DNA from: Eukaryota sp. GEM-RC1
Lineage: Eukaryota
Direction of reading: 5' to 3'
NCBI GenBank assembly: GCA_040285855.1
Contig: JAUFOQ010000006.1
Location: 1,860,001-1,924,000, forward strand
Length of the DNA stretch: 64,000 nucleotides
Positions 19,733-62,463 of the stretch are shown piece by piece; position 1 is the stretch's first letter, and each line of letters starts with the position of its first letter. The position numbers and the translations under genes are program-made. Below the pieces are notes generated by a model. That model made no database searches. It worked only from the letters and a program-made list of their open reading frames with translations, and was not told the DNA's origin.

Positions 19733-21012
19733 CTATTCCTTCAAAGACAAATGAATCACTCCAGGTAATTCCTTGCCCTCCAAAAGTTCTAAAGAGGCAC
19801 CACCTCCAGTACTAACATGAGAGACCTTATCAGCGAAGCCAAACATCTGACAAGCAGATCCTGAATCACCTCCACCAATAACGGAGAAAGCACCTTGTTC
19901 AGTGGCTTCAACAACAGCTGTCATCAGAGCACGAGTTCCTTCAGCAAAAGTGGGGAACTCAAAAACACCAGCTGGACCATTGAAAACAATAGACTTGCAC
20001 TTCAAGATTTCTTCCTTGAACATTTGTCTTGAATCAGGACCAATATCTAAACCTTCCCATCCATCGGGGATTCCCTCAGCTGTGGAACCAATCTTGGTGT
20101 TAGCATCGTTGGAGAAGTCGTCAGCAGCGACAAAATCAGTAGGAAGGATGATTTCAACACCAAGAGCTTTGGCTTTTTCCATAATTTCTGGGACAATCTT
20201 GGCTCCTTCAGCATCATAAAGACTTTTTCCAATGGCCATGTTGTTCAGAACTTTCTGGAAGGTCCAGTTCATTCCACCAATAATAAACATCTTGTCTACC
20301 TTGTCTAAAAGATTCATAATCAACTGAATTTTGTCAGCGACTTTAGCACCACCCATAATGGCAAGCATGGGTCGTTCAGGATTGACAAGTAGCTTGCTGA
20401 AACATTCGAGTTCCTTTTTAAGAAGGAAACCAGCAACACGTGTTTGGAAGGGGAGAACCATAGAACTGTGTGCTCTATGTGCGGTTCCAAAAGCGTCGTT
20501 GACGTATACATCAGCTAAAGAGGTTAAAGACTCACGGAAGCGGGTAACAGCTTCAGGATCGGCCTTTTCCTTCTTTCCATCAACCTTACGTGATCCTTCT
20601 TCCTCAATGTGGAATCGGAGGTTTTCTAAGAGGAAAACGGTTCCAGGGGCGGGATCTCTGCATTGAGCTTCAACTTCGGATCCAACGCAGTCTTCAAGGA
20701 AAACAACGGGATGAGAGAGAAGCTTTTCGAATTCGGCAGCTATAGGACGTAAAGAGTATTTTTCGACACATTCACCGTTAGGTCTTCCTAACTGATATGA
20801 GAACAGTTTAAAGACATACATGAGAAGCACAGACGATGGATTTGGCCCCATGATCCAAAAAGATAACGGATTGTGGGAAGAGCAGCTGCTATTCTAGAGT
20901 TGCTGGTAATTTCTCCAGTCTTCTTGTTCTGAGGAACATTGAAGTCGACTCGAAGGAAGACACGTTGGTCTTTGATCTCAATATCTTCGATTGAAAGTCT
21001 TGGTTTGTCCAT
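19733..21012 (-). CDS. PGK: Phosphoglycerate kinase; 28-nt intron 20792-20819, homopolymer frameshift near 20858
   Basis: [11 protein letters not shown], spliced [48 protein letters not shown]. Confidence 0.98.
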
Positions 21013-21494
21013 TTGAAGAAGCAAATTGATTGGAAATTTCTTTTTGTTTCTTATGCAAGACATTTCCAAGAGTTGTTTGAAAATCAGCCCAGCCTTACGA
21101 TTTATACCATTTCTGTACCTCGGGGAGACTAAAAATGTAAATCATCAGCTGTGATATCCGATTTCGATTCAAAATCGTATTGTAACATCATAATAATTAA
21201 ATTGAATTAAACAGATTTAGAAAATAACAGATTAAATCATGAGTAATGGTTTATCGAAAACAAATTCTTACCAAATGAATAACCACTACTCAAACAACAT
21301 CTTCAACTACAGCAAACTCTAACACACTAAAGAAACAATCAGAGTGAAGTCACTATGACTTTGCATAAGAAACATTCATTAACAATAAACAATTCAGCTA
21401 GAAAAAGAACTTCACAAAAGCCTTCCGAAAGTAAATCAACGAGCAGTGTTTACAAACACCGTAAAATCTGAAAAAACAGAACTTTTTTAAAAAA

Positions 21495-22129: not shown

Positions 22130-22270
22130 TTGCACTACTGTGGTTCTCAACTCAAATGGATATTCCCAAAGTACACAACTTTGTTAATTTTCATTTTGAT
22201 TAGAGTATCGAAACCACAGACACTCAGTGAGCTAAACCCACTTCGCTGTGTACTGTTAAAAGTACACTAA
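22130..22270 (-). ncRNA. Candidate Fanzor omegaRNA, copy 1 (scaffold ends at 22151; putative guide starts TTGAGAACCACAGTAGT)
   Basis: Lies directly after the Fanzor stop. Four hairpins. Identity with 32330-32449 ends abruptly at ...GGGAATATCCATTTGAG. Confidence 0.75.
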
Positions 22271-24839
22271 AGTTCTTTACGAGAGACCTTCTTCTGCTTG
22301 ACTGACTTTACGCTTCTTCTTTTAGGCGAACTCATTTCTTTTGGTGGATTCTTGCATGACGTTTTGTTATGACCTTCTTGGCCACAATTTCCACATGTTG
22401 GTTTCTTACGAGTCTTTCCTGTTGAAGTTTTCAACTTTCTGGTCGCAGTCTTCTTCTTCTTCTGGTCTCTCGCCAAAGTATCCTTACCACTCTCGAGATC
22501 TGTTGTTTGAGTTTTAGATCTCTCGAGAGCGGATGGCCTACCTTGACCATTGATCGTTGCTTCAATGATGGAATAGATATTAATGGCAGAATTTAGGTCT
22601 CTATTCCAATAAGTCCCACACTCAGTATCTGAGCACTTTACCAGTCCCCAGGGTGTGGATTTAGCTTCTTCTTCCAATGACTTCTGCTTCACCTCCCACT
22701 CTGCTTCCAAAATCCCGTTGGTTTAGAGGATCTTGTTTGTTTTTGAGCAAAATTTCTCTTCTTAACTTTCTCTTCTTCCTTCTTAGCTGTCTCTTACCTT
22801 TGGGACCAAGAACCTTTAGTTCTGAAACATTTTCACATTCTACGAAAGTTGATTTTTCCTTAGCACATTTGGAACAACACTTGCTTGTTCTGTATTCATC
22901 AACAAGAAATATTTGGTATCCATATCTTCTTAACATTTTACGGATTTCCACTCCTCTAACAGTAGAGGTTTTACCCTTTCTTGTTTTACCTTTTGAGCTC
23001 CAATCCCCATAGCCAATGACAACGTCTTCTGGAGGTCCATATGTTAAATTGAAGCGTTCCAGCATGTTTTTCTCTGATTGTTGGTTATTTGAATAAATCT
23101 GGAATTTCCTTTTTCTAAACCAGTCATCTTCGTAAAAAGAACTCAAATATACGTTATATCGTTCAGCTTCTTTAATATATGTTTCAAATGTGTCGCTGAA
23201 ACACGACTTTCTTTCCCCGTTTGATACAGCATTGGAGAATTGGTTAACGACATCTCTTCCTGTTACAAGAATATTATCAGGACGAAGAACCAAAAAATCT
23301 TTAAGTTGTCTTTCAGTGACAGTTTCGTCTGGTGATTCGATAGAAAATTCTTTCAGTTTTCTATTTTCAGATTTACGATATTTTTTAGATTTCCTATCAT
23401 AAGCTCTTTCTCCCGCTGTGTAATTAAACTTCTTCCATTTGTGCTTAGCCTTTTTCTTTGATTTTTTTATCATTATTGGAATTTTTCCAATCTTGTAATT
23501 GTTTCTTTCTTTTCTTAATTCCTCCTCTTTTCTTACTTCTGATTTTTGAGGGTAATCGTTTTTTGAGTGGATTATTTTCAGAAATATCTTCTTCTTTAAG
23601 CTCATCGACTGTCTTTTCTGAAACACAATACATTAAATCATATTCATTGGGATCGACACCGACAATTCTTTTTTTCTTTCAATTGTAATTCGTGAATATT
23701 CTCATTTGATAAAGAGTGAATGTATCTTTCCGAAGTTCCGAGAGATTTAGCAGTAAAATCTTTGAAAGTATTTCCATCTTCATCAACCAAATCTTTCCTC
23801 ATTAAAACCAAACAACAAGAAATTCCATCTGTCAGAATTGAAGAATATCTGAAGACAAATGATTTTGTTGGTGCCACAGCTTTGTCAGTAAGGACCTGAT
23901 CAAAGACCTTTTTTCTTATTTCATCTGCATTTTTGCCACGTATATGAACAAATCTATCATTCATCCAACCTGTGTCCAAACGAATATGCTGAGGAATCAA
24001 TGTCTTCGTCATTGGAAAAGGGTTGTTTACACTGATTGGTTTTCCATCAACCAAACACAAAGATTGTATTGTTCGGTTGATGTACAGAGCATGAGAAATT
24101 AACTCTGTCGGCTTTGCTTTCTGTAAATAGTAAATGTTCTTTTTTGAAAACATTGGAAACAAAGAAAATTTTAAATACGCAAAAAACCTCAACGTTAGTT
24201 CTTCACGTTGATTAGGGAAAATCTCGTGATCTTCAATTGGAATGTCATCAAAATTTCCATTGATAATCGAATCTCTGACTGAATTCAATTTCGAAATCAA
24301 TTTTTTCTTACTAACTTGATCATTGATTTGTTCAAGTCTGACCGTCTTTCTTGTTACCAGATTAAAGAATCTGAAAACATAATCATGAAAATTTTTGACC
24401 ATATTGTTGGCATAATTTGTAGAAATTTGTTTGGCAGTGTAATGAAATATGGAAGACATTGACGTTGAGTCAGGAAAAGATATTTGATTGGATCCAATTT
24501 CAGTAGATAACTGCTGTAGCAGTGGAGAAAAGTTGTTCAAGTAGGGAAATGCAATTTTTTCTTTTCGTTCATTTCTAGGCTTGAAGATTTTTGGAAATCG
24601 TCAATCACTTTTTGAGCCTCTGCTCTTGACATTTCTAGTTCTGACTCTGTAATTGAAGAACCAGTTGATTTCTTCACATACATCCGTCTCAATACTTGTC
24701 TAATAGAATCGTGTTTAAGCAGTTTTTTCAAATCTGGTAAGACTACGGAAAACTTAGTGTAGAGGGGTAAATCAGAAGGTTCTAACGGATCAGAAACAGA
24801 TGCATCATCAGAATCAGGCATTGTATCATGGCTCTTCAT
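22267..24839 (-). CDS. Fanzor1 (eukaryotic TnpB-like RuvC RNA-guided endonuclease), about 855 aa from ATG 24839, four homopolymer frameshifts, C-terminal CCHC knuckle
   Basis: FPMTKTLIPQHIRLDT; ILTDGISCCLV; RuvC-I RIVGVDPNEYDLMYC (D at 23652-23654, across a frameshift); VVIGYGDWS; RuvC-II LVDEYRTSKCCSKC; WGLVKC..C..WNRDLNSAINI RuvC-III; GRPSALER. Confidence 0.92.
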
Positions 24840-24891
24840 TAATTTACGTTCATTTAATGCCAACAAATCAGAAAGTTCAGATGGATACGAA

Positions 24892-25639
24892 CAGGAGTTG
24901 GAAAAATTGCATTGCCAATTAATTGTTCTCAGTTTTTCAGAGGCAATGAATTATTGCAATTATCACATGTGCTACAATTAATTGTTTTGTGATAAAGTGA
25001 CCATTTGCACTTAAAAGAAAGTTCAAAAGTTTGTTCTTTATGATAACAAAACTAGTCTTCAGTGTACAATCAGTGTTGACCAACGTCTTGCAGGATATTG
25101 TGCGCTTAATACAGGAAAATTACCTATTGAGTTCGTTTTCCACAAAGTTGAACGGTCTGAGGCCTTTAATAACCCACTTCATCCATTTAAAGTATTCTGA
25201 GTATTTGTCTTCAATTACAAATGTGTCAAGGGTGCTCATTTGCCTTTCATCAAGTCATTGTGCTCCGGTTGAAGGTTAACATGCTTTGTTCTCAGATGGT
25301 TGGAAAGGTTTGTTCACACGTTACCTTTCAATATCATTGCTTTGCACTTACAAGTGTAGTGTTGCCCTTTGACATGAGCACTTTTTCCAGAATCGGACGG
25401 AGAAAAAAAAGTCAAGCACAGAGTACGATTGTCTGTAGGTAAAGGAAGCAAAGTGTTTTATTGTATATCTGCATTCCGTTATCTGTTTGTAATTTCGATT
25501 CATTTCGTGCATTTGAAACCCCCGTGATAATTGCAATTAATTGCCCAATTAATTGTCGTCCTATTTTGGGGGCCAATTACTTATTGCAATTAATTAATTG
25601 GCAATAATTTAATTGGCAATGCAATTTTTCCAACTCCTG
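24892..25639. mobile_element. hAT-type MITE (748 bp) inserted in the exonuclease-Fanzor linker
   Basis: 30-bp perfect TIRs CAGGAGTTGGAAAAATTGCATTGCCAATTA; 8-bp TSD GATACGAA (24884-24891, 25640-25647); CAATTAATTG subterminal repeats. Confidence 0.92.
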
Positions 25640-26950
25640 GATACGAATCAAAATCATATTCATTCACTAACTCCATTTCACGTAGTCGTTCCTCAAAAAA
25701 ATCATGTTCATTCATTAACTCCATTTCACGAAGTCGTTTCTCAAAAAAATCATGTTCATACATTAAATCTCGTTCTTTTGATTCCGAAACAGAAGATTCT
25801 AGGAGATATGGACGAAAGTAATGAGGATTCATCAAATTTAATTCACATCCACGTGTTTCAAACTCACACATAAGGAGATGTTTCAAAAATTTGAACCCCT
25901 TACTGTTGCTCTTTGATTTCGGATAACACAGTCTTTAATTAAGACAATATTATCCTGATCTTTAATAACTTTCTCCAGTCCCTTTTTCACCACTTTAATT
26001 GGATGGCGCTCTAGAACATGTTGAGTTTCTTCATCAAAGAAATATTCATGTAATTCAGATAAACAGTCAATTCGTTGAAGTAAATCTTCAACCAGAGTAA
26101 TTACTTTTGCATTATCAGTCCACAATTTGAAGGTTTGCTTGTTGTGTGCGAGTAGGTTAAACTCTTTCTCTATTTCCTTGTTAACGGTTATGCCTGGTAC
26201 TTTTCGAAATTCTGTGAAGTACGTAGTTAATTCTAATGACGACAAAATTAAATTCGGTACGTGTCTACGAAACAACTTTGAACAAACATTTTCCAAACTT
26301 CTACCACCTTTGAAGACATAAGTAGACTTTGTAACATTTGCCAAGTCCAGAGAAACAAAAGGTCCAAAATTGCAAAGCTTACACCATCTATGAAACCAGT
26401 TGGGTACGTAGGGTCTGTATGGATTATCTAAATGAAAATTGGTCTGAATCTTGAACATTTCACACCGTTTAATCAAAAAGGAAACAACAGTTCATCAGTG
26501 TTATAACCAATCAAGAATCTGGGTTTTGTTTGATATAAAACTTGGATAAGTTCCCCAATCATGGCCTCTTTTGAAGCACAAACAATTATTTCGACATTTT
26601 CAAATGTATTGTTTATGTTCTTTTACTAAAAATAACAGTTGAAGTGAAATTAGCATAGATAAATTTGAGACTGATAAAGATTATTTTGTCTTCTTTATCC
26701 AAAGGATTTGCAAACAGTTCTGCTCTCGATGCTTCAACTTCTTCTTTGATTTTAGGTATATCAGCATCCTCTGGTTCCTCAGAGTCATCTTCAATATCAT
26801 CAGAGTCGACACTTTTTTTAGGCAATACAGTTTTAGGTGATTTGAGAATTCTTGGATTAAGTCGTTTTGCATCAGTAATCATGGTTTTAAAATCAATTAA
26901 ACAAAATGTTGGGATTTCTTCTGTTTCTGTTAATTCTGATAGATTCGATT
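25640..26950 (-). CDS. Degenerate family-B DNA polymerase 3'-5' exonuclease-like domain; N-terminal part of the Fanzor reading frame (three homopolymer frameshifts)
   Basis: ExoI-like IPTFCLIDFKT; FANPLDKEDKIIFISL; EIIVCASKEAMIGELIQVLYQTKPRFLIGYNTDELLFPFLIKRC (ExoII-like); FVSLDL..RSLENVCSKLF. Joins SYP-SELSDLLALNERKLM in frame once the MITE is removed. Confidence 0.65.
25655..25760 (-). repeat. 48-bp tandem duplication encoding EHDFFE(K/E)RLREMEL(M/V)N linker
   Basis: Two-plus copies visible in the DNA and in the translation. Confidence 0.8.
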
Positions 26951-27559
26951 TCTTGAGAAAAAAACAACAGTTACTACTTTGCCTAAATTGAGACCAAATC
27001 TATTGTCTCGAAATACTCTCAAACCAAATTCGAATTTACCTAGTTTGAAATTATCAAAAAAAGTTACAGATCATGTGGACACTGAATCTGTCAACAGATT
27101 ACCAAATTCTCTTGGTATTCAGACAGATTTTGAAAAAACTTGAACAATACTCATAATATTGCAATGGAGACAGAAACAAAGGTTCTCACAATTGTCCACG
27201 ATATTGTACCACTGTACTGGAACCAAAATGATACAACATCAGACTGTCAATTACATATGAGTTTGAAACTTGAGTTGTTAAAAGATTTAAATTTATTGAT
27301 GGCCAAAATTTTGAATTTTCATTTAAATGATAGGGACAAGTACTTTAATGAGTATTGTTGTGGGATTGGTTTTAAGGAGTCGTTTTCGTTGGCTGTGATG
27401 TTTGCGAGAGTGATGGGGGGATATAGTAGTGATAGTTAAGTTTGATAAACTGAGGTTGTATATTTTATTGGTTGTGTTTAACGACATTATATATAGAAGA
27501 CAAAATTATGAGCAACCACAATTCAATACACATACGACACGTTGATTGAGATTGATTCT

Positions 27560-27722
27560 CACCAAATGTTGTATCACCAAATGTTGTCATTACAAATGTT
27601 GTATCACCAAATGTTGTCATTACAAATGTTGTAGTTACAAATGTTGTCATTACAAATGTTGTAGTTACAAATGTTGTAGTTACAAATGTTGTAAAACACA
27701 TCTTGTATTACACATCTTGTGA
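27560..27722. repeat. Tandem array of 13-15 nt units (ACAAATGTTGTAGTT / CACATCTTGTATTA)
   Basis: Directly visible; an inverted counterpart lies at 28718-28797. Confidence 0.9.
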
Positions 27723-28178
27723 CAACTAAAAGACAATAGATAGTGATAATAGACTGGCATATATGGCTTAACTTTATGAACAAAAGAAAAACATAATGAA
27801 TCAAGATTTCCAAGTCAACATATGCTTTCAGCTTGTGACGGTCAGAGTGAGAAGAAGAAAGATTATCATAAGAAGGAGAATATGCGCTGTTTATCCAGCG
27901 AGAGATCGTACTTTGCGAGACAATGAAGAAAGAAAGATGGGTCGTCCCCATCCAGAGAGATATGACCAAAGAGCCCTCACTTTGGTGTCTTCCGAAGCGT
28001 GGACAGACATGCTCGTTAAGTCGAGTCTTGAGTCCCAGAGCATCTCAAAAGTGTATCCCATAAGTAAAAAGAGTTTGTGGGAATTGGGTGTGTGGGGGAA
28101 TTGGTAAAATGGGGATATTCACCCAAAATGAAAACTGCACTAGCACTAAACAAAGATTTGCCTTAGGGAATTTCATTT

Positions 28179-28515
28179 TTTTTGTGTTTCAACCTTTTGC
28201 TGTTTCTCTTTTTGGATTTATTAGTCCTGCTGGAGATCAATTTTTCAAGGATTTCGAAGAATTGTGTAAAGAAAAGAAGCGCAAGTTTAGAATGGCTGAA
28301 TGGAAAAACCGTATAGTGTTTTCCAATATCGGAATATGCCTTTCTATTTCTCTAGATTAATTGAGAAATTGTACAAGTTTGGTGTGAAGGTTAATGTTGA
28401 TAAACGTAATCTTTTACCGGGTGGTGATGAAGTCGTTTGGATTTAATCTTACAGTAGTATTATTTGTTTGTTTTTACAATTTCATAGTTTTGTAGACCTT
28501 ATTGGGTGCCGAATA
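28179..28515 (+). mobile_element. Family A CRE-like 3' fragment
   Basis: FVFQPFAVSLFG...GDEVVWI* and 3' UTR ending GGGTGCCGAATA. Confidence 0.8.
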
Positions 28516-28798
28516 CTGTTTTCTCTCTTTTTGGATGGATCTCTAGATATCCACATTTTCTCAAATTCACCATACACCCTCTTTCCCCAAACTTTTTCTC
28601 TCAATGGGTTACAGCTTTGAGATGCTTTGAAATACAAATTTGGATCTTTCTAGCATGTCAGTACATGCTTCAGAGGATACAAATGTCAGCAGTATGGTCG
28701 TACCGGAGAGAAGTGTCAGAATACAACATTAGTAATACAAGATTTGTAACACAACATTTGTAATACAAGATGTGTAATACATGGTGTGTAATACAAGG

Positions 28799-29700
28799 TT
28801 ACCTATATTTTCCTATATTTTTCAAAATTAAATACAATTCAAATAAAACACACATACCAGTTTTTTCATCATTTTTCAAATACTCTTTCAAAACATGAAA
28901 CAATTCCACAGGTCTTTCGATTTCGTTCAAGTGTTCGATAGCGAACTTTGACTGACTGATTCTTTTTGGTTCTGCTTCAGTGTTGAACCGAACATCAACA
29001 TATGTATCTGAAAAATTAACAATAACTCTAACTCCTTTTGAACCACTAACTAGTCCAAGTTCAGGCTTGTTTTGAGTGTACATCACTTGTCCACCAACAA
29101 CACAGTCAAGTTTTTTTTCAGCAAAGTCATCTAAACGTTTGGTCAGCACAGAAGTTTCAATGTCATAATATTTCTATAAATTAGATTCTACAACTGGAAA
29201 TCTAAAACTTCTTTTGCTAATTTGAGATTTTAATTCAGATTCATTGAATTTGTTAACAGCTACAAATTCAATTGAATCTGAATTTTTAAGCAAGAATTTT
29301 GAATTGTTTTAAATTATCTTTAGCAACATCAATACTGTATTCCTTCCGTACAAAATAGTTGGGTTTTCAACAGAGGGTGCTGCTGTACCAAAATGATTAT
29401 TCAGAATTGATTTCATAAAATTATCTAACAGATCCAATCTCAATTGATTTAGAAAATTAAAAAATTGCGAATCTGATTGCTGCCGAATACTTCCAGCCAG
29501 TTCACAATAATTGAATTTTAAATTGTTCCAAGCACTTGATGAAAAAGTGAAATCAGAAATTACCACTTTTCGATTTCCTTTACCATCAAGACTTTTAAAA
29601 ACAGGGGCTAATTGAAGAAAGTCTCCGAAACAAATTACCTGTATTCCTCCAAATGGTTTCTTCGGAGAGTGGCATTTTGGCGTGTCATTCGTGAGATTGA
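28799..29700 (-). pseudogene. PIF1-family helicase remnant
   Basis: KPFGGIQVICFGDFLQLAPV; FSSSAW..ELAGSIRQQSD..FLNQLR; VNKFNE; VGGQVMYTQN..LGLVSGSKG. Walker A/B and C-terminal motifs not seen. Confidence 0.8.
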
Positions 29701-30543
29701 TGTTGTGTATAGTGGTTGGTGCCATTGAGTTGATGGATTGTTTGAGCGCAGGGAAACTTGGTCTTCATCAAATTTCTCTTTCACTTCACACCATGACTTT
29801 ATCCAGTGGTATTTCAATCGATCAGACAATTTCATTTCAAATGGATAATCTCACATATCTACACTTGATCCACATCGAACTGTTTTCTGCTTAATTCACA
29901 CCCATCCCTTGATATCCTACATCTGCAGTTCACGACTTCAAATTCTTTCTTATTGACTACGTCAACATAAGTCCGCTATTTCGTACGATTCATTTTCTAT
30001 ATCACACCAGTATGATGGAGGATGTGTTTGTATGTGTATTTGTATCATATCTGACTTCTTTCTTGAATCGTAAATCTCGTTTTAGCATCACTGACTTTTT
30101 GTTTATATATCAAATCTCAATTTAAAACAAGTAAGATAATCACACGGATTACTCAGCGACATTACTCAGAGAATGAAGAAGAAGAATCAAGTAACTCAAG
30201 CAATGAGTTAGAGTCAGATTCTACTGGAACAACTGAGATTACTTCGACTCCACTCCCTCCTCTTAAGTCTCTTGTCAAAAAATCCAATTTTACGAAGAAT
30301 CCTTTTGGACTTTAGATTCCTATAAAGCATAGTAATAAACAAGACTGACCTGTAATATTTGTCATTGATCACAGTTTGAAGGAGTCAGGAGAGTCAAGGA
30401 TTATGAGTTTGGGCACATAACTACATAGACACTAGAACGAACAGACAGTCAGAAGCCATTTTGTTGTGAAAAGTCTGTCGGAAAGAACAATCAGGAAGAA
30501 ATGTTGTGAGATATCTACATGAAGATACAATTCTTTCGTTTAC

Positions 30544-32327
30544 ATGGATCCTTTCATCGTAACAACCGCGGACTCTGCTCCTCAAGACCAAGGCAGTGTT
30601 GTCCAAAGTTCTTTATACTCTGTTTCCTCCGCTGTCGTCGCTACTGCGGACTCTGCTCCTCAAGACCAAGGCAGTGTTGTCCAAAGTTTTTTATACTCTG
30701 TTTCCTCCGCTGTCGTCGCTACTGCGGACTCTGCTCCTCAAGACCAAGGCAGTGTTGTCCAAAGTGGTTTACGTTATGTTTCCTCCGCTGTCGTCTCTGC
30801 TATAACAATCCATCAGAAGAATCGTTGGTGTCATGATCTTACTAATGACGGTGATGTTGAAGCCAACCCTGGGCCACCAGATGAGTTTGTCCATATCCAC
30901 AAACTGTATCATGGGTCATGTGCTACAATCCCACATGACACGATCCTTCATCCCGTTAAAAAGATCAAAGGATTTTTTGTCTGTACTTGTTTAGAACATC
31001 ATCGACAACATCCAAGCAACCGCACTTCATCTGGATTAAATTCATTGAAAGATATACCCGCTTATACGACGTTAAAAGCTGAATCATATCTGTATCAAAT
31101 TCAACGTTATTTCGGTGCTCATCTGGGACAAATGAGCTTTGACAAACATTTCATACCCTATTTTATTGCTACAGAATCAGCCCTGGATCCTCTACAGAAG
31201 GACAAATTCTTTGCTGATTTTATCCAATATCACCAAGCTATTCTAGATAGTCAAGACACAATTTCTCTCCCTATCATGCCCGCTCCTAGTTTGTCTACAC
31301 CTGCGTCAGATTGTCAAAGTTATGAAATATGTAACTACTGCATGCTTCCCGGCCACAAAAGTACTATCAAAGGTGAACCCCTATGTTGTCTTCGTAGTCG
31401 ACCCCTTTCATACCAAAATTTCACTCGAGTTGTTAATTATTTCTCTTGTTATATACCGTCTACAATGTTGGCATACGCCTTAACTGTCTGTCATAAATAC
31501 ATTTTGACGGAACCACATTTGAAAGAAGTAAAAATGTTTCCTGTTCCAGGTAATACTGGAAAAAATGTACAATAACAGAAATAACTAATTTCACCTTCGA
31601 CTTAGTTTCCCATGTCAGCACTGTTGCAGAAACTCTCGATGACTTGTATTTTTCAGCTCTACTGAACGAAATTCGTCACTATGCTAGGTGCAACGGTTTA
31701 GTTTCCGAACAGACTTCCATTGAATCTGAAAATGGTGATGACTTTAATAGCGATTACTTAGATATGGACAAAAGAATTGATAATTTTGCTTTTAGTTTGG
31801 AAAGTGTCGATCAAAATCTTCATTCAACATGGATTTTTCGTTCCCTGTACCGCTTTGTTGTCTTTGCCAAAATCTATGTTGAGTCAGATTCGGATGTCCA
31901 AACAGAATATAGAAAAAGTCATTTGGATTCTCTGTATTTGTTCATTTTTATGCTAGGATATCAAAGTTATATTATCTCTCAAGATTCATCTGAAATTTAT
32001 GAGTTTTCAAATTTAATTAAATTCCCCTTTGACTTCTTTAAGTCTATGTTCAATGAAAAAGACGACGAATTCACTATTTTAGAGGCTATCGATAATGCTT
32101 TAAGATACAAGAGAAAAACAAAACCACAAAGTGTTGTTCAATTGGACCAAGTGATAGTACCACAAGTTTCATCTCTTATGGAAGAAGATCTTATGGAAGA
32201 AGTATGTATGTCATGTGGCCAAGAAGGTCATAACAAAACGTCATGCAAGAATCCACCCAAAAAAATGAGTTCGCCTAAAAGAAGAAGCGTAATGTCAGTC
32301 AAGCAGCAGAAGGTCTCTCGTGAATAA
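30544..32327 (+). CDS. About 595-aa polyprotein-like ORF: 26-aa repeats, 2A-like peptide, unknown domain, CCHC knuckle shared with the Fanzor (one A-run frameshift at about 31563)
   Basis: Adding one A to GGAAAAAAT joins the two ORFs (GKKCTITEITNFTFDL..DDLYFSALL). Contains DLTNDGDVEANPGP and terminal CMSCGQEGHNKTSC. Confidence 0.7.
30565..30795 (+). repeat. Three tandem 78-bp coding repeats (TADSAPQDQGSVVQS..VSSAVV)
   Basis: GCGGACTCTGCTCC recurs at 30568, 30646, 30724. Confidence 0.95.
30826..30876 (+). other. 2A-like ribosomal skipping (StopGo) peptide
   Basis: WCHDLTNDGDVEANPG|P matches the GD(V/I)ExNPGP consensus. Confidence 0.85.
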
Positions 32328-32329
32328 CT

Positions 32330-32470
32330 ATAGTGTACTCTTAACGGTACACAGCGCAGTGGGCTTAGCTCACTGGGTGTCTGTGGTTACGATACTCTAA
32401 GCAAAATGAAAATTAATAAAGTTGTGTACTTTGGGAATATCCATTTGAGCATTAGAAATGTGTTACAATA
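32330..32470 (+). ncRNA. Candidate omegaRNA, copy 2 (scaffold ends at 32449; putative guide starts CATTAGAAATGTGTTAC)
   Basis: Same hairpins as copy 1, with stem substitutions that preserve pairing. Confidence 0.7.
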
Positions 32471-36962: not shown

Positions 36963-37505
36963 AGCCAAGTACAACAACTATTATATTAAGAACATCTCCC
37001 ATAACCATCATCAATTGATCAGTATTTTCCTCGGAACTTTGCTTGAAAGCTATTAACTGGGATTCAGAGATACCAACAACTAAAAAAATATCAAAGTAGT
37101 TATCAAACTATAATTTCGGATTAACTGGACAACTCCACTCTTGATGTAAGATTACATCAAAATTTAAGTCCACCATTCATTGTTTGTTGCAAAAAGAATA
37201 CGTCGAAAATTGTAAAAACTTACAGTGTTCAACACCTTGCAATCAGTGGACAGTATACTTGGGTGGAATAATTGAAAACCGCGTAATCAATGATTCAATT
37301 CTGTTTCTTCAACATTCTATACACCTGACACAGTTGTACATGACAGACTTTTTATCAAAGCTGTGATAGCCACTGATCATAAATGTCTGAACTTGCTTGA
37401 TTACAATTCGTTAAAGTTCGTTTTAGTCTTCACTTTTTGACAAGGTATGACGTCATCAATGTTCCAAAGAAAGAATTTGCTAAACGTAACACTTTCTTCC
37501 TCAAA

Positions 37506-38096
37506 ATGACTTTCGTTGGATCTCAAACAGAAAAGAACTTAATCACCTCTTTTGTTCACGAATGCTGTGCAGCACAAAGATATGAAATGTTTGCTAAGAC
37601 AGCAACAAAAGAAGGTCATGCCTATATTGGTAAGATCTTTGATGAAACTGCTGCCATGGAACGTGTTCACGCAAACCAGTTTTATACCAAACTTCAAGGT
37701 GGAGAAGTAGAAGTGCAATCTGCTTTCCCTGCTGGAATCGCCGGAAGCAAACGTGTTGGTAACACAGCCACAAATCTTCAAATGTCTATTGATGGTGAGA
37801 ACCATGAACATCAAGTGGTCTACAAAGAGGCTGCTGAGGTCGCCGAAAAGGAAGGTTTCTCTGACATCGCCACTCTCTTCTCCAACGTTGCCAAAGCTGA
37901 GGAGTTCCATGCTAAACGCTTTGCTTACTTGCTTTTGAACCTTACAAACAAAACTCTCTATCATTCAAACGATGTTGTTTATTGGATCTGTTCGAATTGT
38001 GGATTTGTTGAATGTAGTACCGATGCTCCTGCTGTTTGTCCTGCATGCGCACACCCTAAGGGATATTTTTACAGAGAAGGAGTTTCCCTTAATTAG
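37506..38096 (+). CDS. rbr: Rubrerythrin (ferritin-like di-iron domain + rubredoxin-like domain)
   Basis: SQTEKNL..E..A..RY..A..EG..F..TA..E..HA; GENHE..Y; AEEFH; WICSNCG..APAVCPACAHPKGYF. Confidence 0.93.
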   Translation: MTFVGSQTEKNLITSFVHECCAAQRYEMFAKTATKEGHAYIGKIFDETAAMERVHANQFYTKLQGGEVEVQSAFPAGIAGSKRVGNTATNLQMSIDGENHEHQVVYKEAAEVAEKEGFSDIATLFSNVAKAEEFHAKRFAYLLLNLTNKTLYHSNDVVYWICSNCGFVECSTDAPAVCPACAHPKGYFYREGVSLN

Positions 38097-39090
38097 TTAA
38101 ATTGTGAATAAAAAACATTTATTTACTTCGATTTGAGAATTGTTTGTAATCGGGCATTATAACTGATCCAATTACATCCTTGAAATGTTTGTTGTGTGAG
38201 TGAAGCATGCAAAAGCCTTAGAAACCGAACTAATGTCTTGCGATTATTACAAGTCTATGTTGCTTGCTGGATAAGTACCAAGCAGAACATGTTGGTAGCA
38301 TGATTTTTATGGTAGACTGTTTGGAAGTATTTAATTTAGGTTATTATGAAGGATTTTTTAATGGATTAATACATTTATGAATGTAAAATATATTAACGAA
38401 TTGTCAAATGATAAGAGATGGACATTCTTGTAGGTTCACCAATTGACAAACATTTTTATAAAATACAGATCAGAATCATCACCATCACACTATCTATCCA
38501 CCAAAGAATCCCGAAACAATGCCCAAAGAACAGAATATTTCCTAGTTGTTGTTGAAAGAAAACAGAACCATTAACAAACCATAGCAATTACGGAAGCACA
38601 GGGAGGATCATGAAGCAGTATCACTATCTCTTTTAATTTGAATTGTTCGAGACACTAATATCTTACTTGCAACTATACCAACAAACAAAGTAGAAGCAAA
38701 TGACACTAATTGGATAAAGGTAAAAACCAGTGAGAATGATACATAGGAAATGAGACAAATTGAGATGTGCAGAACGTAGAAGGTTAGAACAAAATCCCAA
38801 ATTTTCGGTGGTTCTACAACAACATAAGCGACAATTAAACCAACAATGATGGAAAAAACAGATTATAAACAATTTGAACCGATGATTCGTAAGCAAGAGG
38901 ATGAAACATCGACACAAGAGATATTGGTCGACCAAAAGGCAAAAAGAACAAAGAAAAGACTAACTGCAGAGCATACGAAGACACTTGAATGCATAGTATC
39001 TGAAAGAATGTAAGACCAAGCCGTATTTGAGCTTTCTTGGATATGGGACGAAATCGCATTTGGTTGAACAAATTCTGACATACTCAAAAG

Positions 39091-40636
39091 ATGCCATCTA
39101 CCCCTCTTCTTCCCGGGTTTTCTGTCCGAGACTACAGCTTTGAGAAGTCTTATAATAAGAAGCATGTTTTTGATTACAGCTGCAACATTCCTGTCGTTCA
39201 AGGAGGTTTCAGCATCCCCCATGAAAATATTGAGGTACCAGAGAATGTTGACACATCCCTACTGAATTGTTCCATCAACACCTCCACTTACGGCTCTTTT
39301 TTCAGTCATTCCTCCAAAGATTTTGTTCCCGCTTTCGTTGAAAAGGACAAAGTTCTACGTTTCTTTGGCTACTTCCTCGAAACAGTTCGTGACTCACCTC
39401 ACGAAACATATCGCATCCGTTTTTGCAAAATTGACTACTTTTTGGTCGACGACACTCTACAAGTCTTGGAACCAGCTGAAGAGAACTCTGGTCTCCCCTC
39501 AAGGCGTCTTCCTCAAGCGTTCAACCGTAGTCAACCCAAAGATCAGCTCCCCATTCACTCCTAGTGACTTTCAGATTGGTCACGTCATATCTATTTATAA
39601 CCGCAACATCAAACTCTACGACTGTAACGAGTCAACCCGTCACTACTACGATGAAATTGACTCTCCTCTAGAACCCTCCCTACCAAAACCTTCAAACGAC
39701 TCTAAACCTCAAACTTCCTTTAACAGAACTTCTTTAGTCTCACATCAGGGTAATCCGGGCTGCGAGGGCTTGAAGTACCTCGATTCCTTCTTGAAAAATG
39801 ACCGAAAAATCCTCCGTTTCTTTTGTCACTATTTTGACTCTTTCCAACAGGCCTACGTCTCTCTTGTTCTTCTCTACTATCTAGCTGACAACTCTGTTGA
39901 GATCATCCAACCTTTCTCTAATGACGACGGCAAGGGAGGAGATGAAGAAGTTCTTGAAGAGGGGTAAACTTCCAGTTGATAGTGATTTGAATCTCTCTCT
40001 TACACCTTCAATGCTTGCTGAGGAAGTCCAGTTCTTGGTTGCATCTGATCTTTATGTCGGTAAAGAGCTCACAGTCTTTAAACACTTGATTGTGATTGTT
40101 GGCTGTGATAAGTTTACCAGTGATTGGTTACGTGATGAGGGAATCCAGGATGACGCGACAGTTATGACTATGAAGGACTTGTCACGTGATAAGTCTGAGA
40201 AAAGAAGGTTGCTGAAATTGAGATTCCTCCGAGAGAGATTTTGATTGGTGATGACGAGGATTCAATGGGCTCAGTTAAATCGTTGATTCCAAAACCACCT
40301 TCCAAAAACGTTTCCAAAATATTAAATAATGTTAAAATTAAGTACAGATTCAGAGCCAAACTAGTTGCAGACTCAATCATTGACTGTGATCGTCGTTTCG
40401 TAATCACTTGGTTCGACTCTGATGATACTCTTTCCATTTTCGAAGAATCTCTACCAAACTCTGGAATCGTTGGCGGTCAGTTTCTAGGTCGTAGCCGTCC
40501 TAAGAAAGCAGATGGAAAGATTGTAACATTGGAGGACTTAGGTATTGGAAAGGAAGTGGCCATATACTCTCGTGTTTTTAGAATTGTTGATGCAGACCAA
40601 TTTACACGGGATCGATTGAACTTGACAGTCGAATAA
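39091..40636 (+). CDS. EFHC1/Rib72-like axonemal protein with three DM10 domains (three frameshifts)
   Basis: TPLLPGFS; DKVLRFFGYF..YFLVDDTLQVLEP..NSGL; DRKILRFF..YYLADNSVEI; RRFVITWF.SDDTLSIFE..PNSGIVGGQFL. Confidence 0.88.
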
Positions 40637-43685: not shown

Positions 43686-46600
43686 TCAAGATTTAAACAA
43701 CTCATCGATTTTCTTACTCAAATCATTAACTTTATGATCGTTGAAATCGCCAAAACCTTTCAAAATCCTGGTCTGCTTGTGTTTAAATGGCTTTGAAAGC
43801 TCATTCATTCTGACCTTGTTTACTATTTTCTTGGGCTTTTGAATCACACTAGATTTTGATTGTGATTGCAGACTTCTTAAAGAAACTCTGTTTTTGGCAA
43901 GTGACGGATTGGTCAGGGAAAGAGCGACCTTATCATCATACTCAGAATGGTAATCATCTGGATTAATAGAGCTCATCGCTTCCAGAGTGGAAACTAGCAG
44001 CTCTCGTTGACTTGTCAGGAAATATTCGTAATCAATATCAAAATTCCAAAACTCAGATGTATGACCAACCACTTTACCTGTATAGTCAACAATGTAAACG
44101 TCAGCAGAACAATCAGTACCTAAACAAATCACTCTAGGATGATCAAACAACGATACAGACGTCACCATTCCCTTAACTAACTTGTCGAGAGCAAAGCTGG
44201 CTAGAATGAAGTAGTTTACATCAAGTAAAGAAACCAGCCGATTATTAATAAATAAAGACTTGTGTTCTAATGGAGGTAGTTCAAAGTAACACGACGTATA
44301 GTCTTCAACAGTCTCTCCAGTCACGTGACAATGAAACAGATTTTTAAAATCAATAATATACGATATTCCGTTGGTCATTGTTACTAAAAATAGTCCATAC
44401 TCTTTACTTACTGTTGCTGACGATATACTCCGAGCCAACGAAGCACACCTAAGATAAATAGACTGCATAGAAGGTTCAATTGAAGGCTCATGAGGACTTG
44501 CTGAATCATTTGAAAGAACTTCTGGCCATGTACATTGACAAGACAGCAACTTCAAAAAGGAGCAATGGGTGTAGCATCGCGAGCACCACGTACATGAGAA
44601 ATCAAAAGATTACCATGGGTATCACCAGTAAGTAGAAGTCCAGTTTCTACGTATTCCATTACAGTCAGGCCACCAGGATGTTGGAGAAGAGGCAGTCCCT
44701 TGTTGAGGATTTTAAAAGATAATGAATCAAATCCATATACTTTACCACAAGTAGTACCAACGACAAAGAAAGGGAGTGACGAAACATGAGAGTCGTAAAC
44801 GTGATCCAATGACGTGCACGAGAAGGGCTCAAAGGGTAATCGAGTGACTGACAGAGGGTAAAGCATGCCATCAACAGCGTTCTCGTTAAAGAAAAGCACG
44901 TTTCCATCAGTGTACAAGGCACAAACGTAACGTAACTCAGGAGCAAAGGCCATAGAGACTATATCAACACAGTAAACCTGGCCAGTGTCCTCATCAACTG
45001 GGCAAAGAGTCTTTAGAATAGCCCCATTGGCTACATTGAGAACTTTAACAAAACCATCTGAATATCCCACAATCAACTTACGTTCCCTATCATCAAAGAT
45101 CATAGCCACACCTTCCTTTTCTGAGTACCACTCAAACAACTTAGATCCAGTACTCCCATCCCAAGTAAAGATAGCCTTGGGGGAGAGAGAAATGAAGTTG
45201 AGGAGGGAGTCAGCAAAGAGAATTGAAATGACTCTGTGGTGGGCGGTGTGATCTTCTAGTAGGGGAGGTTTCTTAATTAATACTTGGAAGTTACATAAGG
45301 GCCCAGAAGCGCTTGTGATGACGAATCTGGGTAGAGCAACTGATGAATCGACCTTGATCCCCATGTTGATTACTTGAATGCATTCTAAAGTGATTAATGA
45401 CCATATGCAGACAAATCGGTCTTGATCAAACGTAGCCAGATAACTCTCGTCATCTAACAAACATTGTGATAGAATTGGAGTTCCGTGGAAATGGCCACCT
45501 CCTAGTTTAAAAACAAAGTCACTAGAAGTACAGTTGTATCCTAAAGCGTATCTGGAAAGGAAAGAGTGACCGCCACACGAGCCCTATCACTCCAAACAAT
45601 ACTAATCACTGCTTGATTGGTCACGTGACCAGAGCTCTCAGGAGACACTGTCTTATTTGTTCCCCCTCGAAACTCCCCCTGACAACAAATCAAACCAAAG
45701 AACAGATCCATCCTGGAATCCAACAATGACTAACTTTAAGAAGGGAGCGTTGGCTAGAGAAGTGGCAGGAACCCCTTGTTTCTCAGATAAGTACTTTTGA
45801 GGGAAAACCCAAGACTGTTGTCGCAGTGGTGGTAGGACGTTGAGTTTAGACATAGAGGGGATACCAGAAATGTCCTTATCTTTGCTGGTATCGTGGTCCA
45901 GATCTTTTGTTTCGTGGAATGCCCAGTAAACTGAAGCGACTGGCCAAGGGGAAGCATTCTCAAGAACTCCGAGTCTAGATAGAGGTGCTAGAGCTGGAAC
46001 AGAGTAAACGAAAACATCACCAGAAGCTAGTCCTATAGCGACAGAGCAACATTCGTTCTCATCGTCAATTACTGGAGCTAGAGAGAGTACGGGGGGAAGG
46101 GCAAAGGATCTTAGTCTTTTGAACAAGGGTGACAGCATCCCAGACTGACACGTGGCAGTCTGTTGAGCCTGATACTAGCCATGGCCAAGAGAGGTACGCG
46201 TTACGAGAGAAGGGGCAGAGACAGGTGCAAGGAGCTAAGTGAGCAGCAAAGACAGTGGTCCGGGAGGAGAGATAGCGTGACACGTCATCAGAGAATGGAT
46301 CCATTTGAGTCATTGGGGCATTCTCCCAAGCAACAATGTTAGGGGAGTTGTCAAGACAGGCAAAGAGACGAGAGGCTGGGGCATCAATGAAGACAACAGA
46401 GTGAATGGAAGCACGTGAGACACTGATACCAGTAGCTCTAATGACTGGGGAGAGGATGTACTGAGAGGAGAGTTTTGTTTGGAGGTTGGTCGTGATGCAG
46501 GATGCTACGTAGGCAGAGAACTCGTCACTTTCTAGGGTACCATCTCCGTTAACATCAATTTCACAGAAAAGTTGGGTTAATGCAAGATCGAGTTCTAAAG

Positions 46601-46871
46601 GTAAGAAGCAATCTTTGAATGAGGGTGAGAGGTACTTCTTCATGACGACAACAAAGATAGGAAGGACTACTTCGTTGTTGAGAAGAATGTCACGAATTGC
46701 AGCAAGAGCTTCAGGAGAGACGTCAAGCATAATGGAGCGAACAAAAGAGGCTTCATTGCCTCTTCGAAAAGCCTTGATATTGAGAGAATGAGGTGTAACT
46801 TGGGTTCGAGAACGGGAGCGTTTTACGGAAGCAGATGAAGCATTGATAGAGTGACTGTACAGTGAAGCCAT
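43686..46871 (-). CDS. EF-hand + WD40-repeat protein (several frameshifts)
   Basis: LFCEIDVNGDGTLESDEF; LVSGSTDCHVSVWD; LIVGYSDGFVKVLN; consecutive same-strand ORFs. Confidence 0.75.
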
Positions 46872-47184
46872 CGTGGGGATACTATTTTTGTCTTGACATG
46901 TATGAAGTAAGCGATTGGCAAAACTATATAAAAAACTGTGCAACTTTCCTTCTGAAAAATATATTCAGACACTTGATTATTGGGTTGGGAGTTCGTCGTG
47001 ATGACTCTTGGTCTTGGAAACAATTGATTTAACAAAATCAGCGAAAACAATGGATGTGACACAATCCAAAAGTTAACCAAAGACCTTCACTATTAAGGGT
47101 CCTGTTTGAAACGTTTGCGTAAAAAATTTAAAAATTTTTCTAATAGTGCATTGATACAGGAAGTTAACGATGAAATAGAGAGAT

Positions 47185-47488
47185 GTTTATTCGGCACCCA
47201 ATAAGGTAACCTTTCTACAAACTATGAAATTGTAAAAACAAACAAATAATACTAAGATTAAATCCAAACGACTTCATCACCACCCGGTAAAAGATTACGT
47301 TTATCTACATGAACCTTCACACCAAACTTGTACAATTTCTCAATTAATCTAGAGAAATAGAAAGGCATATTCCGATATATGGAAAACACTATACGGTTTT
47401 TCCATTCAGCCATTCTAAACTTACGCTTCTTTTCTTTACACAATTCTTCGAAATCCTTGAAAAATTGATCACCAGCAGGACTAATAGA
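47185..47488 (-). mobile_element. Family A CRE-like 3' fragment
   Basis: Near-identical to 848-1150. Confidence 0.85.
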
Positions 47489-48669: not shown

Positions 48670-48838
48670 TTTATTCGGCACCCAATAAGGTAACATTCCT
48701 ACAAAACTATGAAATTGTAAAAACAAACAAATAAAACTAGGACTAAATCCAAACGACTTCATCACCACCCGCTAAAAGATTACGTTTATCAACATTAACC
48801 TTCAGACCAAACTTGTACAATTTCTCAATTAATCGAGA
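48670..48838 (-). mobile_element. Family A CRE-like 3' fragment
   Basis: Same 3' UTR and DEVVWI tail. Confidence 0.8.
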
Positions 48839-49195
48839 GTGTTTTATTTAGACTTACTAGTATGTTTCAAAAATAAGCAACTAACCCAATTCTGAAGCAA
48901 TTATTGTCTGTGATACTCATATTTTTTGAAAAATGTAAAAGTTTAATTGTAAAATAATACACATACTACAGTATATTTAATGATGACATCATCAAACAGA
49001 CTCAAAGAACGCTTTGCCCAAGTGTAGCGGAGAAGTTCTCAATCAAAATAAAATACAAACATACATATATAAGTGCTACATTGTTCTCCTTCAAAAACTC
49101 ACGTTTACAAGCTAAAAAGACATAAATAATAAACTTAGAAATTATGAGTATATACTTCCCACCTGACAAAAAGAAAATCATCGTTCAAAAGAAGT

Positions 49196-51408
49196 TTACC
49201 CAAATAATCGCTTAAATTCATTAGTAAAACTGTCTTCCTCAACAACACTTGTCACATCATCAGCACAAATAGAAAACAAGCAAGTCCCCGCATTAATCCT
49301 CGCCTGTAGCACCTCCAAGGCCTTGGACTGAGGTAACAAAAGAGAAAGAGCAACCAAACAAGTATACATTGGCTTCCGATCAGTCTGAGAAATCAGTCGT
49401 AGCCTAACACAAGCAAAAGAAGGAGATTCAAATAGCTGAACGAACCGGTCAAAATGCACGTGATCAGTATCAGAGAATCCTTTCTTACCATAGTACTCAA
49501 TGACAGCAAGGCAAGACGAGTAACTGCGGGAATACATTGACAATGAAAAGAAACAAAAGGGACTATGTACAAACGATGTAATTAAGCTTTGATAATCAGA
49601 AGATCCTCTGTTTTGAACTCGCAGTCGTAAATCGTGGAATCTAGAGCACGTGAATAGAGACAACAATAGACAAGGAAGTGTTTTAGTAGTGAGGTCTTTT
49701 GATTCTCGGGAAGAAACACTTGTGATCTTACCAACAATGGATAACACAATCTCACAGAAATACTGATCAGATTTGATCCCTTTGATACGTGATAAAAGGT
49801 CAAAAAGAATGAACAAACGCTTGGAGTCATGCAAGAATCCGTTAGACCTCTGGAAGCTTCTGTTACGACTACTGACTTGAATATGACTTCATCATGTTCT
49901 TGCGCTTGAGAGAAAATCAAGCAGAAAACTTCAATCACAATTGATTGAAGGTCAGAATTAGACTCAAATCGGCTACATAGAATTAAACAGCGTACAATTC
50001 TACACAGGACATTGGGTGATAGGTCGTTTTTACACGTGAACCAATGTTTTGAAATAATAAATTTCAAAATATTACAAACCAGCGAATATTTACTAAACAC
50101 AACGCTATCAACTGTTGATGACGACGACGATTGAGGTAAGAACGAGGAAAGCGTCGAGACCAAGAGCTTAAACTGAATCTTATGTGAAGGTGCATAAGTT
50201 AGAACATCGATAATATCATTGACGAGTGGCTGAACAAAATCAGATAAATCAGAAAAGATATTGGTAGAAAACAAATTAAAAACAAATGATATTATTGAGG
50301 ATAACTTGTGTAGAATAGGAGTGGTTGCGGGAGACGATCCAAACTTAACATAAACCTGAGCACAAACTGAGAACCACAGTAGACATTCATGTAAAATAGG
50401 TGTGGAAGTGGCATGAAGAGCAGAAAGTTTGGTTAGAGTGTGAATCAAATCCTCCCAATGAATGTTGTCGATTTCGCAGGAGGTGTAGGCAACAATGGAA
50501 AACTTGTCCTTTTCTACTATTCTGGATAGTGGATCCAGATCAGAAGCTACGGCGTCATCAAACTCCAAAGGGACGTCTTCATCTAAAGGGATAGAGTTGT
50601 TAACAAAAGAGCGAAGTTTGGAAAGAAAGTCTTCTGATTGGAGAGTGATTTCCTCATTGGAAAGCACGTGATCAGCGAAAGTGTAGGCAAAGACTTGGGC
50701 ATCTCTTGGGGAAGCAGGACTACCAGAAGTGTAAGGGAGAGGTTGAGAGACAAGAAGGGGGATGACTACAGAAAGCAAGATGTGGGTATATGGGAGGAGA
50801 TCAACTGAGAGACAGTCTAGAAGGAAAGATAGTAGTCGGATGGCAAGGGACTTGGGAGGTAACACGGAGAGAGACAGAGCATTGCAGATACATGGGATTA
50901 GAGGATCTAGGACTAGCATATGACCATGTGAGAGAAGGATGTCTTGGAGTAGACGTTCTAGAGACAAACAAGATGCAACGATTTCAGTACTTGGATCAGA
51001 GAATCCAGCGACTAGACTTTTAAATATGAGATGGAAAAAGGAAAGGATATGGTGAGTAAGAGCCTTACATAAGGAGTAGAGAGCTTCGAAAGACAGAAGA
51101 CGAACATGGGAATCTAGATCTAACACTCGAGAAAAAAGGGGTATAAGAATGAGTTCCAAAATGCTGGAGATGTTGACTTTGTCATCTAAGGGAAGTTTGG
51201 ACGCTACGTAACCGAGAGCAACAACAGAAGAACGACGATGAGACAGATCAGTACTCGAGGAAAACACAGAAATACTGTTAATCAAGGCAACGAAATCATT
51301 CTCTGTGAAACAAGAGGAAAGAAGATTATCCAGATATGTGACTGAGGGAGATCTCTTATCATTAGTTTTAAGAACAAGATGAGAGAGTTTTGTAATTGAC
51401 ACCTGCAT
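49196..51408 (-). CDS. VAC14: VAC14 homolog (HEAT repeats; frameshift near 49850)
   Basis: DLDSHVRLLSFEALYSLCK N-terminal motif; C-terminal FDRFVQLFESPSFACVRLRL..LLLPQSKA..LQARI. Confidence 0.85.
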
Positions 51409-51667
51409 TGGTGCGTGATGATTCCTAACAAAATTGGATGGAAATTTACTGAAATATGTTTAAGTCATCCAGTCGAAATAGTGAATCAAGGGAATAATGA
51501 TCGTCTTAATAGAAGTCTGTTTATGCAGATACTGAGTATATGAACAAAAAGTCACAGATTGAAGGTTATTTTTAGTGAATCAAAACAATTCAACACCCAA
51601 ACAGACATGAACAACAGCCAGTTGATGAAATCAGAGCCGATCAAAATAAGTGCTAAAGAGACTAAGC

Positions 51668-62009: not shown

Positions 62010-62463
62010 GTATTGTGTTTACTTGTGTTTCTCAGTTTGATTACTGCTAGCTCTATTCACTTTCTATGTGTGATCTTTTTCTATGCATGATGTGTTTTTT
62101 TGGCATTGTAGTAGTGTTGATGTTATTCGTCATTGAATAAATTGTAACAAGACTCAATGTATTACAAATCTAACAATATATGCTAACCTTATTTGCATGA
62201 CTTAATCGTTCTGTGCAATAAGTTCTGGAAATAATTGCTTCTTGAATTAGTTACACACACTTTCGATTTTGAATAGACATAATTTCAGCGTTGTCAACAA
62301 CTTCATTTGTTGACCTGTGCTAATCTACCGGGATTTAGCAAAATTAAACAAACAAACGGGAACGATATGACGATATTTTCAGGTTCAATTCTATTCCTTT
62401 GATGTTGAGAACAGATCTGTCTTCTTTAGGCGACTATTGCGTAGCGAACATGAGAGCTTTCTA

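Follow-up and report, generated by a model that had tools for sequence, protein, structure and literature searches.

A stretch of 64,000 nucleotides from Eukaryota sp. GEM-RC1 (assembly GCA_040285855.1, contig JAUFOQ010000006.1, positions 1,860,001 to 1,924,000; hereafter the window, numbered from its first letter) carries a minus-strand gene at 22267-26957 that joins an exonuclease domain of the family-B DNA polymerase (PolB) type to the RNA-guided nuclease Fanzor1. That this fused architecture is real can be accepted with very little reservation. It constitutes a new variant of Fanzor1, and the window copy itself is broken and eroded in its exonuclease motifs. Described Fanzors are single-function nucleases, and no natural enzymatic fusion appears in the literature searched. 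The family couples a second nuclease to a guide-directed cut and provides a natural pair of exonuclease-intact and exonuclease-eroded forms, with five complete open reading frames (ORFs) of the intact kind. The fate of Fanzor-cut ends in a eukaryote becomes testable, as does the question of whether Fanzors really home.

A family of single-ORF fusions and the position of the joint

The original prediction held that a PolB exonuclease-like domain and a Fanzor1 are fused in frame. Relatives encoded by single ORFs, Pfam PF03104 matches above cut-off in these relatives and a structural model of one of them that matches SpuFz all bear this out. A search with the RuvC piece of the window gene returned two proteins among 1305 candidates, one of which is a 1181-residue ORF with PF03104. 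The clusters of these two proteins contain 13 and 12 members in the records of Eukaryota sp. GEM-RC1 and TZLM3-RCL. From the REC piece, a full HMMER search recovered 73 matches, and among the 20 that were looked up, 14 belong to GEM-RC1, TZLM3-RCL and TZLM1-RC and six are metagenome proteins. Judged by their names, these three records appear to be the Skoliomonas metamonads of bioRxiv 10.1101/2023.05.03.539051. Single-ORF relatives of 1181-1479 residues, found in two metamonad records, hold both the PolB exonuclease domain and Fanzor1. PF03104 exceeded its cut-off of 23 bits in 9 of the 12 relatives first scanned (39.3 bits in P0010, 58.6 in P0020) and in one of 56 further matches (P0038). The closest full relative, P0010, is a single ORF of 1182 residues that is colinear with the window pieces across both domains, from residue 36 onward (41-72% for the individual pieces).

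The Pfam check suggested for the window gene succeeded in relatives and failed in the separate exonuclease pieces of the window, which have no Pfam match and reach only E 0.38 in their best match to archaeal PolB. Assignment of the PolB domain to the window copy depends on the relatives, not on these pieces. Taken alone, the unbroken 202-residue ORF had no match among 528 word-search candidates or in the PDB, and its best ESM Atlas value was 0.78.

Phylogenetic comparison of the Fanzor part separates ten rows of the fused clade from 34 plain Fanzor1s (SH-aLRT 100). An earlier tree, which left out six of 53 sequences as short fragments, recovered the same clade, and none of the 34 plain Fanzor1s matches the exonuclease profile. 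The fused subfamilies form one clade, which points to one origin. A search with the exonuclease region of P0020, which was insensitive, recovered nothing outside the P0020 cluster (1 of 4575 candidates), and scans of metagenomes and viruses found no related locus.

The joint between the two domains is located by both sequence and structure. The alignment to a profile built from 32 plain Fanzor1s starts at profile position 11-14 on PIKVVK (window 26002), and motifs of this type align to the profile in P0020, P0038, P0010 and the window ORF 25886-26491. The window match scores 7.0 bits, against a best of 5.1 among 500 shuffles. In the AlphaFold model of the relative P0002, confidence is high for most of the chain beyond about residue 460. 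The model matches SpuFz, PpFz and GtFz (Foldseek E 3e-19) and aligns with SpuFz at Z 26.7 (515 aligned residues, root-mean-square deviation 4.4, model range from 465). Residue 18-19 of SpuFz1 superposes on residue 464-465 of the model, the same spot as PIKVVK. Fanzor starts at window 26002, about 25 residues past ExoIII. The joint therefore lies inside the unbroken ORF 25886-26491 and needs none of the frame corrections that had been invoked to link the domains; RGSNFLKHLL, previously read as the PolB linker after the exonuclease, is the first Fanzor1 helix; and the insertion described below, once placed in a linker between the domains, disrupts Fanzor itself.

The Fanzor1 identity of the body is well defined. 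The published motif, D-X(125-275)-[TS][TS]-X-X-C4 zinc finger-X(5-50)-RD (excerpt of PMC3627910), is present in the read-through of the window gene, with 253 residues from D to TS and RD five residues past the finger. A RuvC-II glutamate is expected six residues ahead of the zinc finger in Fanzor1 (excerpt of PMC13565253), and E1093 of the read-through stands ahead of C1100. The best PDB match of a window piece is GtFz1 (E 4e-4). Compared with SpuFz1, PpFz1 and GtFz1 (PDB 8gkh, 9cf0, 9cer), the whole WED-REC-RuvC-zinc-finger body of the P0002 model superposes from SpuFz residue 18. The Bao and Jurka motif above, the RuvC D/E/D triad, the structured conserved sequence past the stop codon and the many copies per genome are further likenesses. 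In contrast to plain Fanzor1s, the fused family has about 300 extra PolB exonuclease residues directly before the first WED strand, and its proteins span 1180-1480 residues versus mostly 600-750 for plain matches. Some fused subfamilies also carry an upstream 2A-like motif, the window copy has a zinc-knuckle-like tail, and no terminal inverted repeat (TIR), target-site duplication (TSD) or transposase was found for the window element.

In line with the original prediction, no natural Fanzor-exonuclease fusion was found in the Fanzor literature searched, outside which lie supplementary tables, subscription papers and Repbase, which could list such proteins. The word "exonuclease" is absent from the main text of PMC10530073, PMC10432273, PMC10711439, PMC3627910 and the 2026 review PMC13565253. 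In the excerpts available, Fanzors figure in PMC10288648 and PMC6338049 solely as cargo of transposons, and the available portion of the Skoliomonas metamonad study (bioRxiv 10.1101/2023.05.03.539051) does not mention "Fanzor".

The interrupted window copy

The window gene is a single long frame, interrupted by seven one-base shifts and one insertion. Read through with X at these eight breaks, it gives 1301 residues and no stop, in agreement with the anticipated protein of about 1300 residues. Three of the shifts (near 26620, 26477 and 25886) had been anticipated and are real, and four more, in the Fanzor body (near 24552, 23670, 23452 and 22709), had escaped notice. Each lies at or beside a short base run. 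The exonuclease part occupies 26003..26957 (minus strand) and is defined by motif alignment and 55% identity to the exonuclease part of P0010, with CLIDFKT at 26903, FANP at 26714, EDKIIFISL at 26693, GYNTDELLF at 26508, VSLDL at 26356 and RSLENVC at 26302. The start of Fanzor1 follows at 25648..26002 (minus), comprising the first strand PIKVVK, the first helix (RGSNF at 25900) and then a variable loop that contains the shift near 25886 and a 48-nt tandem repeat at 25650-25766. The Fanzor1 body at 22591..24891 (minus) includes the REC/WED regions, the RuvC-I aspartate (VGVDP, 23663), the RuvC-II glutamate (VDEYRTS, 22903), the C4 zinc finger and the RuvC-III aspartate (NRDLN, 22605). GtFz1 is its best PDB sequence match, and Pfam Cas12f1-like_TNB scores below cut-off. 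All motifs quoted in the original prediction are present, and the RuvC triad is kept. The gene ends in a basic C-terminal tail and stop codon at 22267..22590 (minus), with a zinc-knuckle-like motif at 22369-22395. The tail is 89% identical to the C-terminal part of P0028, and its zf-CCHC match is weak (E 0.18).

Within Fanzor lies a non-autonomous insertion of 748 bp (24892..25639, no strand assigned) with perfect 31-bp TIRs and an 8-bp TSD, whose copies stand at 24884-24891 and 25640-25647. The TIRs start with CAG, and from this signature together with the 8-bp TSD we take the insertion to be hAT-like. Neither of two short internal pieces matches Pfam as a transposase remnant, and BED-finger-like text is apparent only by eye. 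Excision in silico of the insertion and one TSD copy leaves an open frame of 213 codons (25934 to 24539) through EYDFDSYPSEL, the seamless frame that had been described. An insertion-free relative of the kind sought for comparison is P0026, which is 88% identical in the matched stretch and links MELMSEHDFDS (upstream of the insertion in the window) to FSVVLPD (downstream) with nothing between. The insertion is a genuine lesion, and the window copy is therefore dead as it stands. Two further candidate features of the gene were rejected. EYDFDSYPSEL is not PolB motif A, being inside Fanzor, adjoining the 48-nt repeat and absent in P0010, P0020 and P0026, and a PolB N-terminal domain at 26930-27070 finds no match there in any relative.

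One-base shifts also split host genes in the window, namely a DM10-domain protein, PGK, a long repeat-like gene and Vac14 (39079-40636, plus; 19733-21141, 43686-46964 and 49196-51459, all minus). In two DM10 domains the frame changes at profile positions 55-58, and in PGK it changes near the start of the gene; other long host ORFs in the window are whole. These splits point to residual indel errors in the assembly. Because similar shifts divide conserved host genes, the seven shifts in the fused gene may be assembly errors as well.

Catalytic states of the exonuclease domain and a possible role in homing

The best PDB sequence matches of the exonuclease part are all family-B polymerases, with Pol delta first (E 1.5e-5; 8.9e-9) and archaeal PolB nearly tied. 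ExoI, ExoII and ExoIII follow the order and spacing of the proofreading domain PF03104, as in Pol delta, archaeal PolB and T4/RB69 gp43. Unlike these polymerases, the fused family has no palm, fingers or thumb after the exonuclease (relatives show no polymerase-domain Pfam match) and no N-terminal PolB domain, is joined to an RNA-guided nuclease and, in the window branch, has lost its catalytic acids. The predicted erosion is evident in the window motifs DFK, N..LL and DL..R. P0010 reads DFK, NSEKLL and DL..K, so that only the first aspartate is kept in both. Intact motifs (DIE/DVE, N...FD, YC..D) occur in P0020, P0023, P0038, P0111 and P0025. All five ORFs are complete and retain the RuvC triad as well, and the intact state is found in two TZLM3-RCL subfamilies that are mutually 38-40% identical.

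By these motifs, the family exists in two catalytic states, intact and eroded, the latter including the window branch. The original prediction had missed both the sister branch with all four catalytic residues and the fact that erosion is common to another subfamily. Since it is shared in this way, erosion does not reflect decay of the window copy. Exonuclease and Fanzor identities run parallel in all six pairs compared (55/60 for window and P0010, then 35/36, 32/33, 31/34, 33/32 and 38/40), and 42 of 270 ungapped exonuclease columns are invariant over four subfamilies, with clusters at GPF..D and FKGGR.L.NV..KLF. For these reasons, the eroded domain can be taken to be under constraint, and it is as conserved as the Fanzor.

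Our preferred explanation is that the Fanzor cuts and the exonuclease trims for homing, and we place the probability of this whole mechanism at roughly 45%. The prediction is that an omega-RNA guides the Fanzor to empty insertion sites, where it cuts; known Fanzor biology would place the cut 14-21 bases past the target-adjacent motif (TAM), within right-flank sequence. Fanzor1 cuts at that distance, and SpuFz1 after base 16-17 of the non-target strand (excerpt of PMC10432273). The TAM-side broken end would then carry a short 3' tail of right-flank sequence, unpaired on the filled donor. This tail would have to be removed before synthesis or annealing finishes, and a tethered proofreading domain would trim it on the spot. 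The family may thus have captured a PolB proofreading domain to trim its own cut, so that the element copies back. In the eroded branch, because three of the four catalytic acids are gone, the job would survive only as DNA-end binding, or the domain would be kept for folding, and trimming would be left to host Pol delta.

Comparable steps operate elsewhere. Homing is considered the route by which OMEGA systems restore excised elements (excerpt of PMC13565253), and Pol delta removes 3' non-homologous tails in yeast gene conversion (excerpt of PMC9477423). In T4 intron homing, the cut lies 23-25 nt from the insertion site, and the PolB proofreading domain 43Exo is used together with DexA (excerpts of PMC2988022 and PMC12153337). 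The likeness to td intron homing would be an off-centre cut processed by a PolB-type 3'-5' exonuclease. In T4, however, the exonucleases are separate phage proteins and I-TevI recognizes DNA through protein contacts; the fused Fanzor is not claimed to be homologous to I-TevI.

Several observations weigh against trimming for homing. All 34 plain Fanzor1s do without an exonuclease domain, and host Pol delta could do the trimming. Exonuclease motifs are eroded in at least two subfamilies, where trimming would be dispensable. In a third GEM-RC1 subfamily (P0114 and kin), the Fanzor is preceded by 110 or more residues that show no exonuclease-profile match (0 of 6 fragments), so that the domain may not occur in every member of the clade; other GEM-RC1 subfamilies are on record only as fragments. 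The suggested AlphaFold/Foldseek analysis, available for P0002 rather than for the joined window protein, supported the Fanzor1 fold and was of low confidence in the exonuclease part, which is mostly below pLDDT 50 and gives no information on reach to the cut. Its residues 207-297, modelled at low confidence, match in fold only RNase H-like integrase cores (Z 7-8), a common arrangement. For the window element, neither a left end nor a TSD, TAM or transposase turned up. Homologous repair needs a 3' end, and an unchecked 3'-5' exonuclease could harm homing. Fusion of an engineered 5' exonuclease (T5E) lowered SpuFz1 editing (excerpt of PMC13434818). Engineered exonuclease-OMEGA/Cas fusions (T5E, TREX2) resemble the present family in tethering an exonuclease to an RNA-guided nuclease, but they are artificial and T5E is a 5' exonuclease, whereas the fused Fanzor is natural and carries a 3'-5' domain at its N-terminus. 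The natural family could guide the design of a self-trimming editor, where the artificial exonuclease-SpuFz1 fusion failed.

Other roles for the domain are less probable. The exonuclease could chew the cut ends, block re-ligation and destroy or delete targets such as empty alleles, rival elements or viruses, as a cut-and-degrade effector. Intact DEDDy motifs tethered to a nuclease fit such a role, and engineered exonuclease fusions are reported to raise editing by some CRISPR and OMEGA effectors (excerpt of PMC13434818), but deletion of the flanks would take away the homology that the element needs, and the window branch has lost catalysis. No foreign target was established by guide comparison, which yielded short near-matches and had no chance control, and we consider destruction of targets unlikely. 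Somewhat less credible again is that a Fanzor once recombined into a polymerase gene, either host Pol delta-like or viral, and that the domain is what remains of this gene, retained only as an aid to folding or localisation. The erosion of motifs in two subfamilies agrees with a relic, as does a broken PIF1 helicase 2 kb upstream on the same strand, an arrangement seen in larger replicative elements. Against this, neutral drift would not preserve catalytic residues in two subfamilies only 38-40% identical, and the domain is cleanly cut, without palm or PolB N-terminal part.

RNA 3' ends are a frequent substrate of DEDD-fold nucleases, and the domain might trim or hold the 3' end of the omega-RNA and set guide length. 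The zinc-knuckle-like tail encoded by the element, itself a weak match, would suit an RNA role, as would guides that extend 14-15 nt into the flank (excerpt of PMC13565253). Yet all significant matches are to DNA polymerase proofreading domains, which act on DNA, and plain Fanzors mature their RNA without an exonuclease domain, which leaves action on RNA the least likely of these three roles. To read the fusion as an isolated chimera or as misassembly within the window is close to untenable. Eight breaks had to be bridged and one-base shifts affect host genes, but the joint sits within one uninterrupted ORF and is found again in single ORFs from two genome records and at least four subfamilies; only a systematic error common to these records would rescue such a reading. 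Trimming of the Fanzor cut for homing remains the explanation that we favor.

Element ends and neighboring sequences

The 3' end of the element, with a candidate omega-RNA scaffold, lies at 22151..22266 (minus). It is 94% identical to a second copy and shares a sharp common end with it. The full repeated unit of 236 bp starts with the zinc-knuckle-like tail and reaches 116 bp beyond the stop; its second, inverted copy (knuckle, stop and candidate omega-RNA) stands at 32214..32449 (plus). Both copies fold better than shuffles (z -2.7). Their differences comprise four one-sided pair-keeping changes and no two-sided ones, and the candidate has no Rfam match. With two copies only, the 3' end is a candidate that fits an omega-RNA scaffold. 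A TSD was found neither for 22151-32449, taken as one element, nor for the nested insert described below.

Two overlapping ORFs at 30523..32327 (plus) end in the second 3' end and are possibly a non-autonomous relative. The first contains a 78-bp tandem repeat, a CCHC-like motif and, at 30853-30876, the motif DVEANPGP, which we take to be 2A-like from the D-x-E-x-N-P-G-P consensus; the overlapping ORF is helical. Homology of this first ORF to the N-terminus of P0010 was considered and rejected as very improbable, as 323 of 2000 shuffles score equally. The ORF at 31554-32195 gave only a weak Dymeclin/Hid1-like lead with low recognition. A 2A-like motif also precedes the exonuclease domain in P0002, P0023, P0038 and P0111 (four of 113 proteins, all fused relatives), and none is seen ahead of the exonuclease of the window copy. 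The two motif-bearing subfamilies are only 38-40% alike. This motif suggests translational recoding in a Fanzor gene. The 30523-32449 locus may represent a partner that bears guides but no nuclease; alternatively, it may form the far arm of an inverted-repeat element of 10 kb. A speculative extension, which we regard as improbable, is that the element homes by itself: one 2A-recoded protein would locate empty sites through an RNA guide, cut them and trim the ends for gene conversion, and the element would spread in the genome without its own transposase and receive guides from nuclease-less partners of this kind.

The PIF1-like helicase upstream of the fused gene lies at 28799-29764 (minus; PF05970, E 7.5e-10), has in-frame stops and shows no accompanying Rep domain. 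Next to it, a nested insert at 27560-28800 has inverted 14-15-bp tandem arrays at its ends (27563-27720 and 28720-28797) and carries a repeat piece also present at 850-1186, 47188-47486, 48672-48839 and 63874-64000. A hAT dimerisation-domain fragment at 59278-59553 (minus; PF05699, E 3.6e-15) is embedded in a 62-67-bp repeat array at 58986-59782. Inverted copies of 330-bp tandem units with a decayed repeat occupy the two window ends (62354-63453 and 850-2080), and the decayed repeat carries text that resembles a restriction endonuclease. Finally, an ORF at 37401-38096 (plus) is bacterial-looking and, by eye, of the rubrerythrin type, which fits an anaerobic protist.

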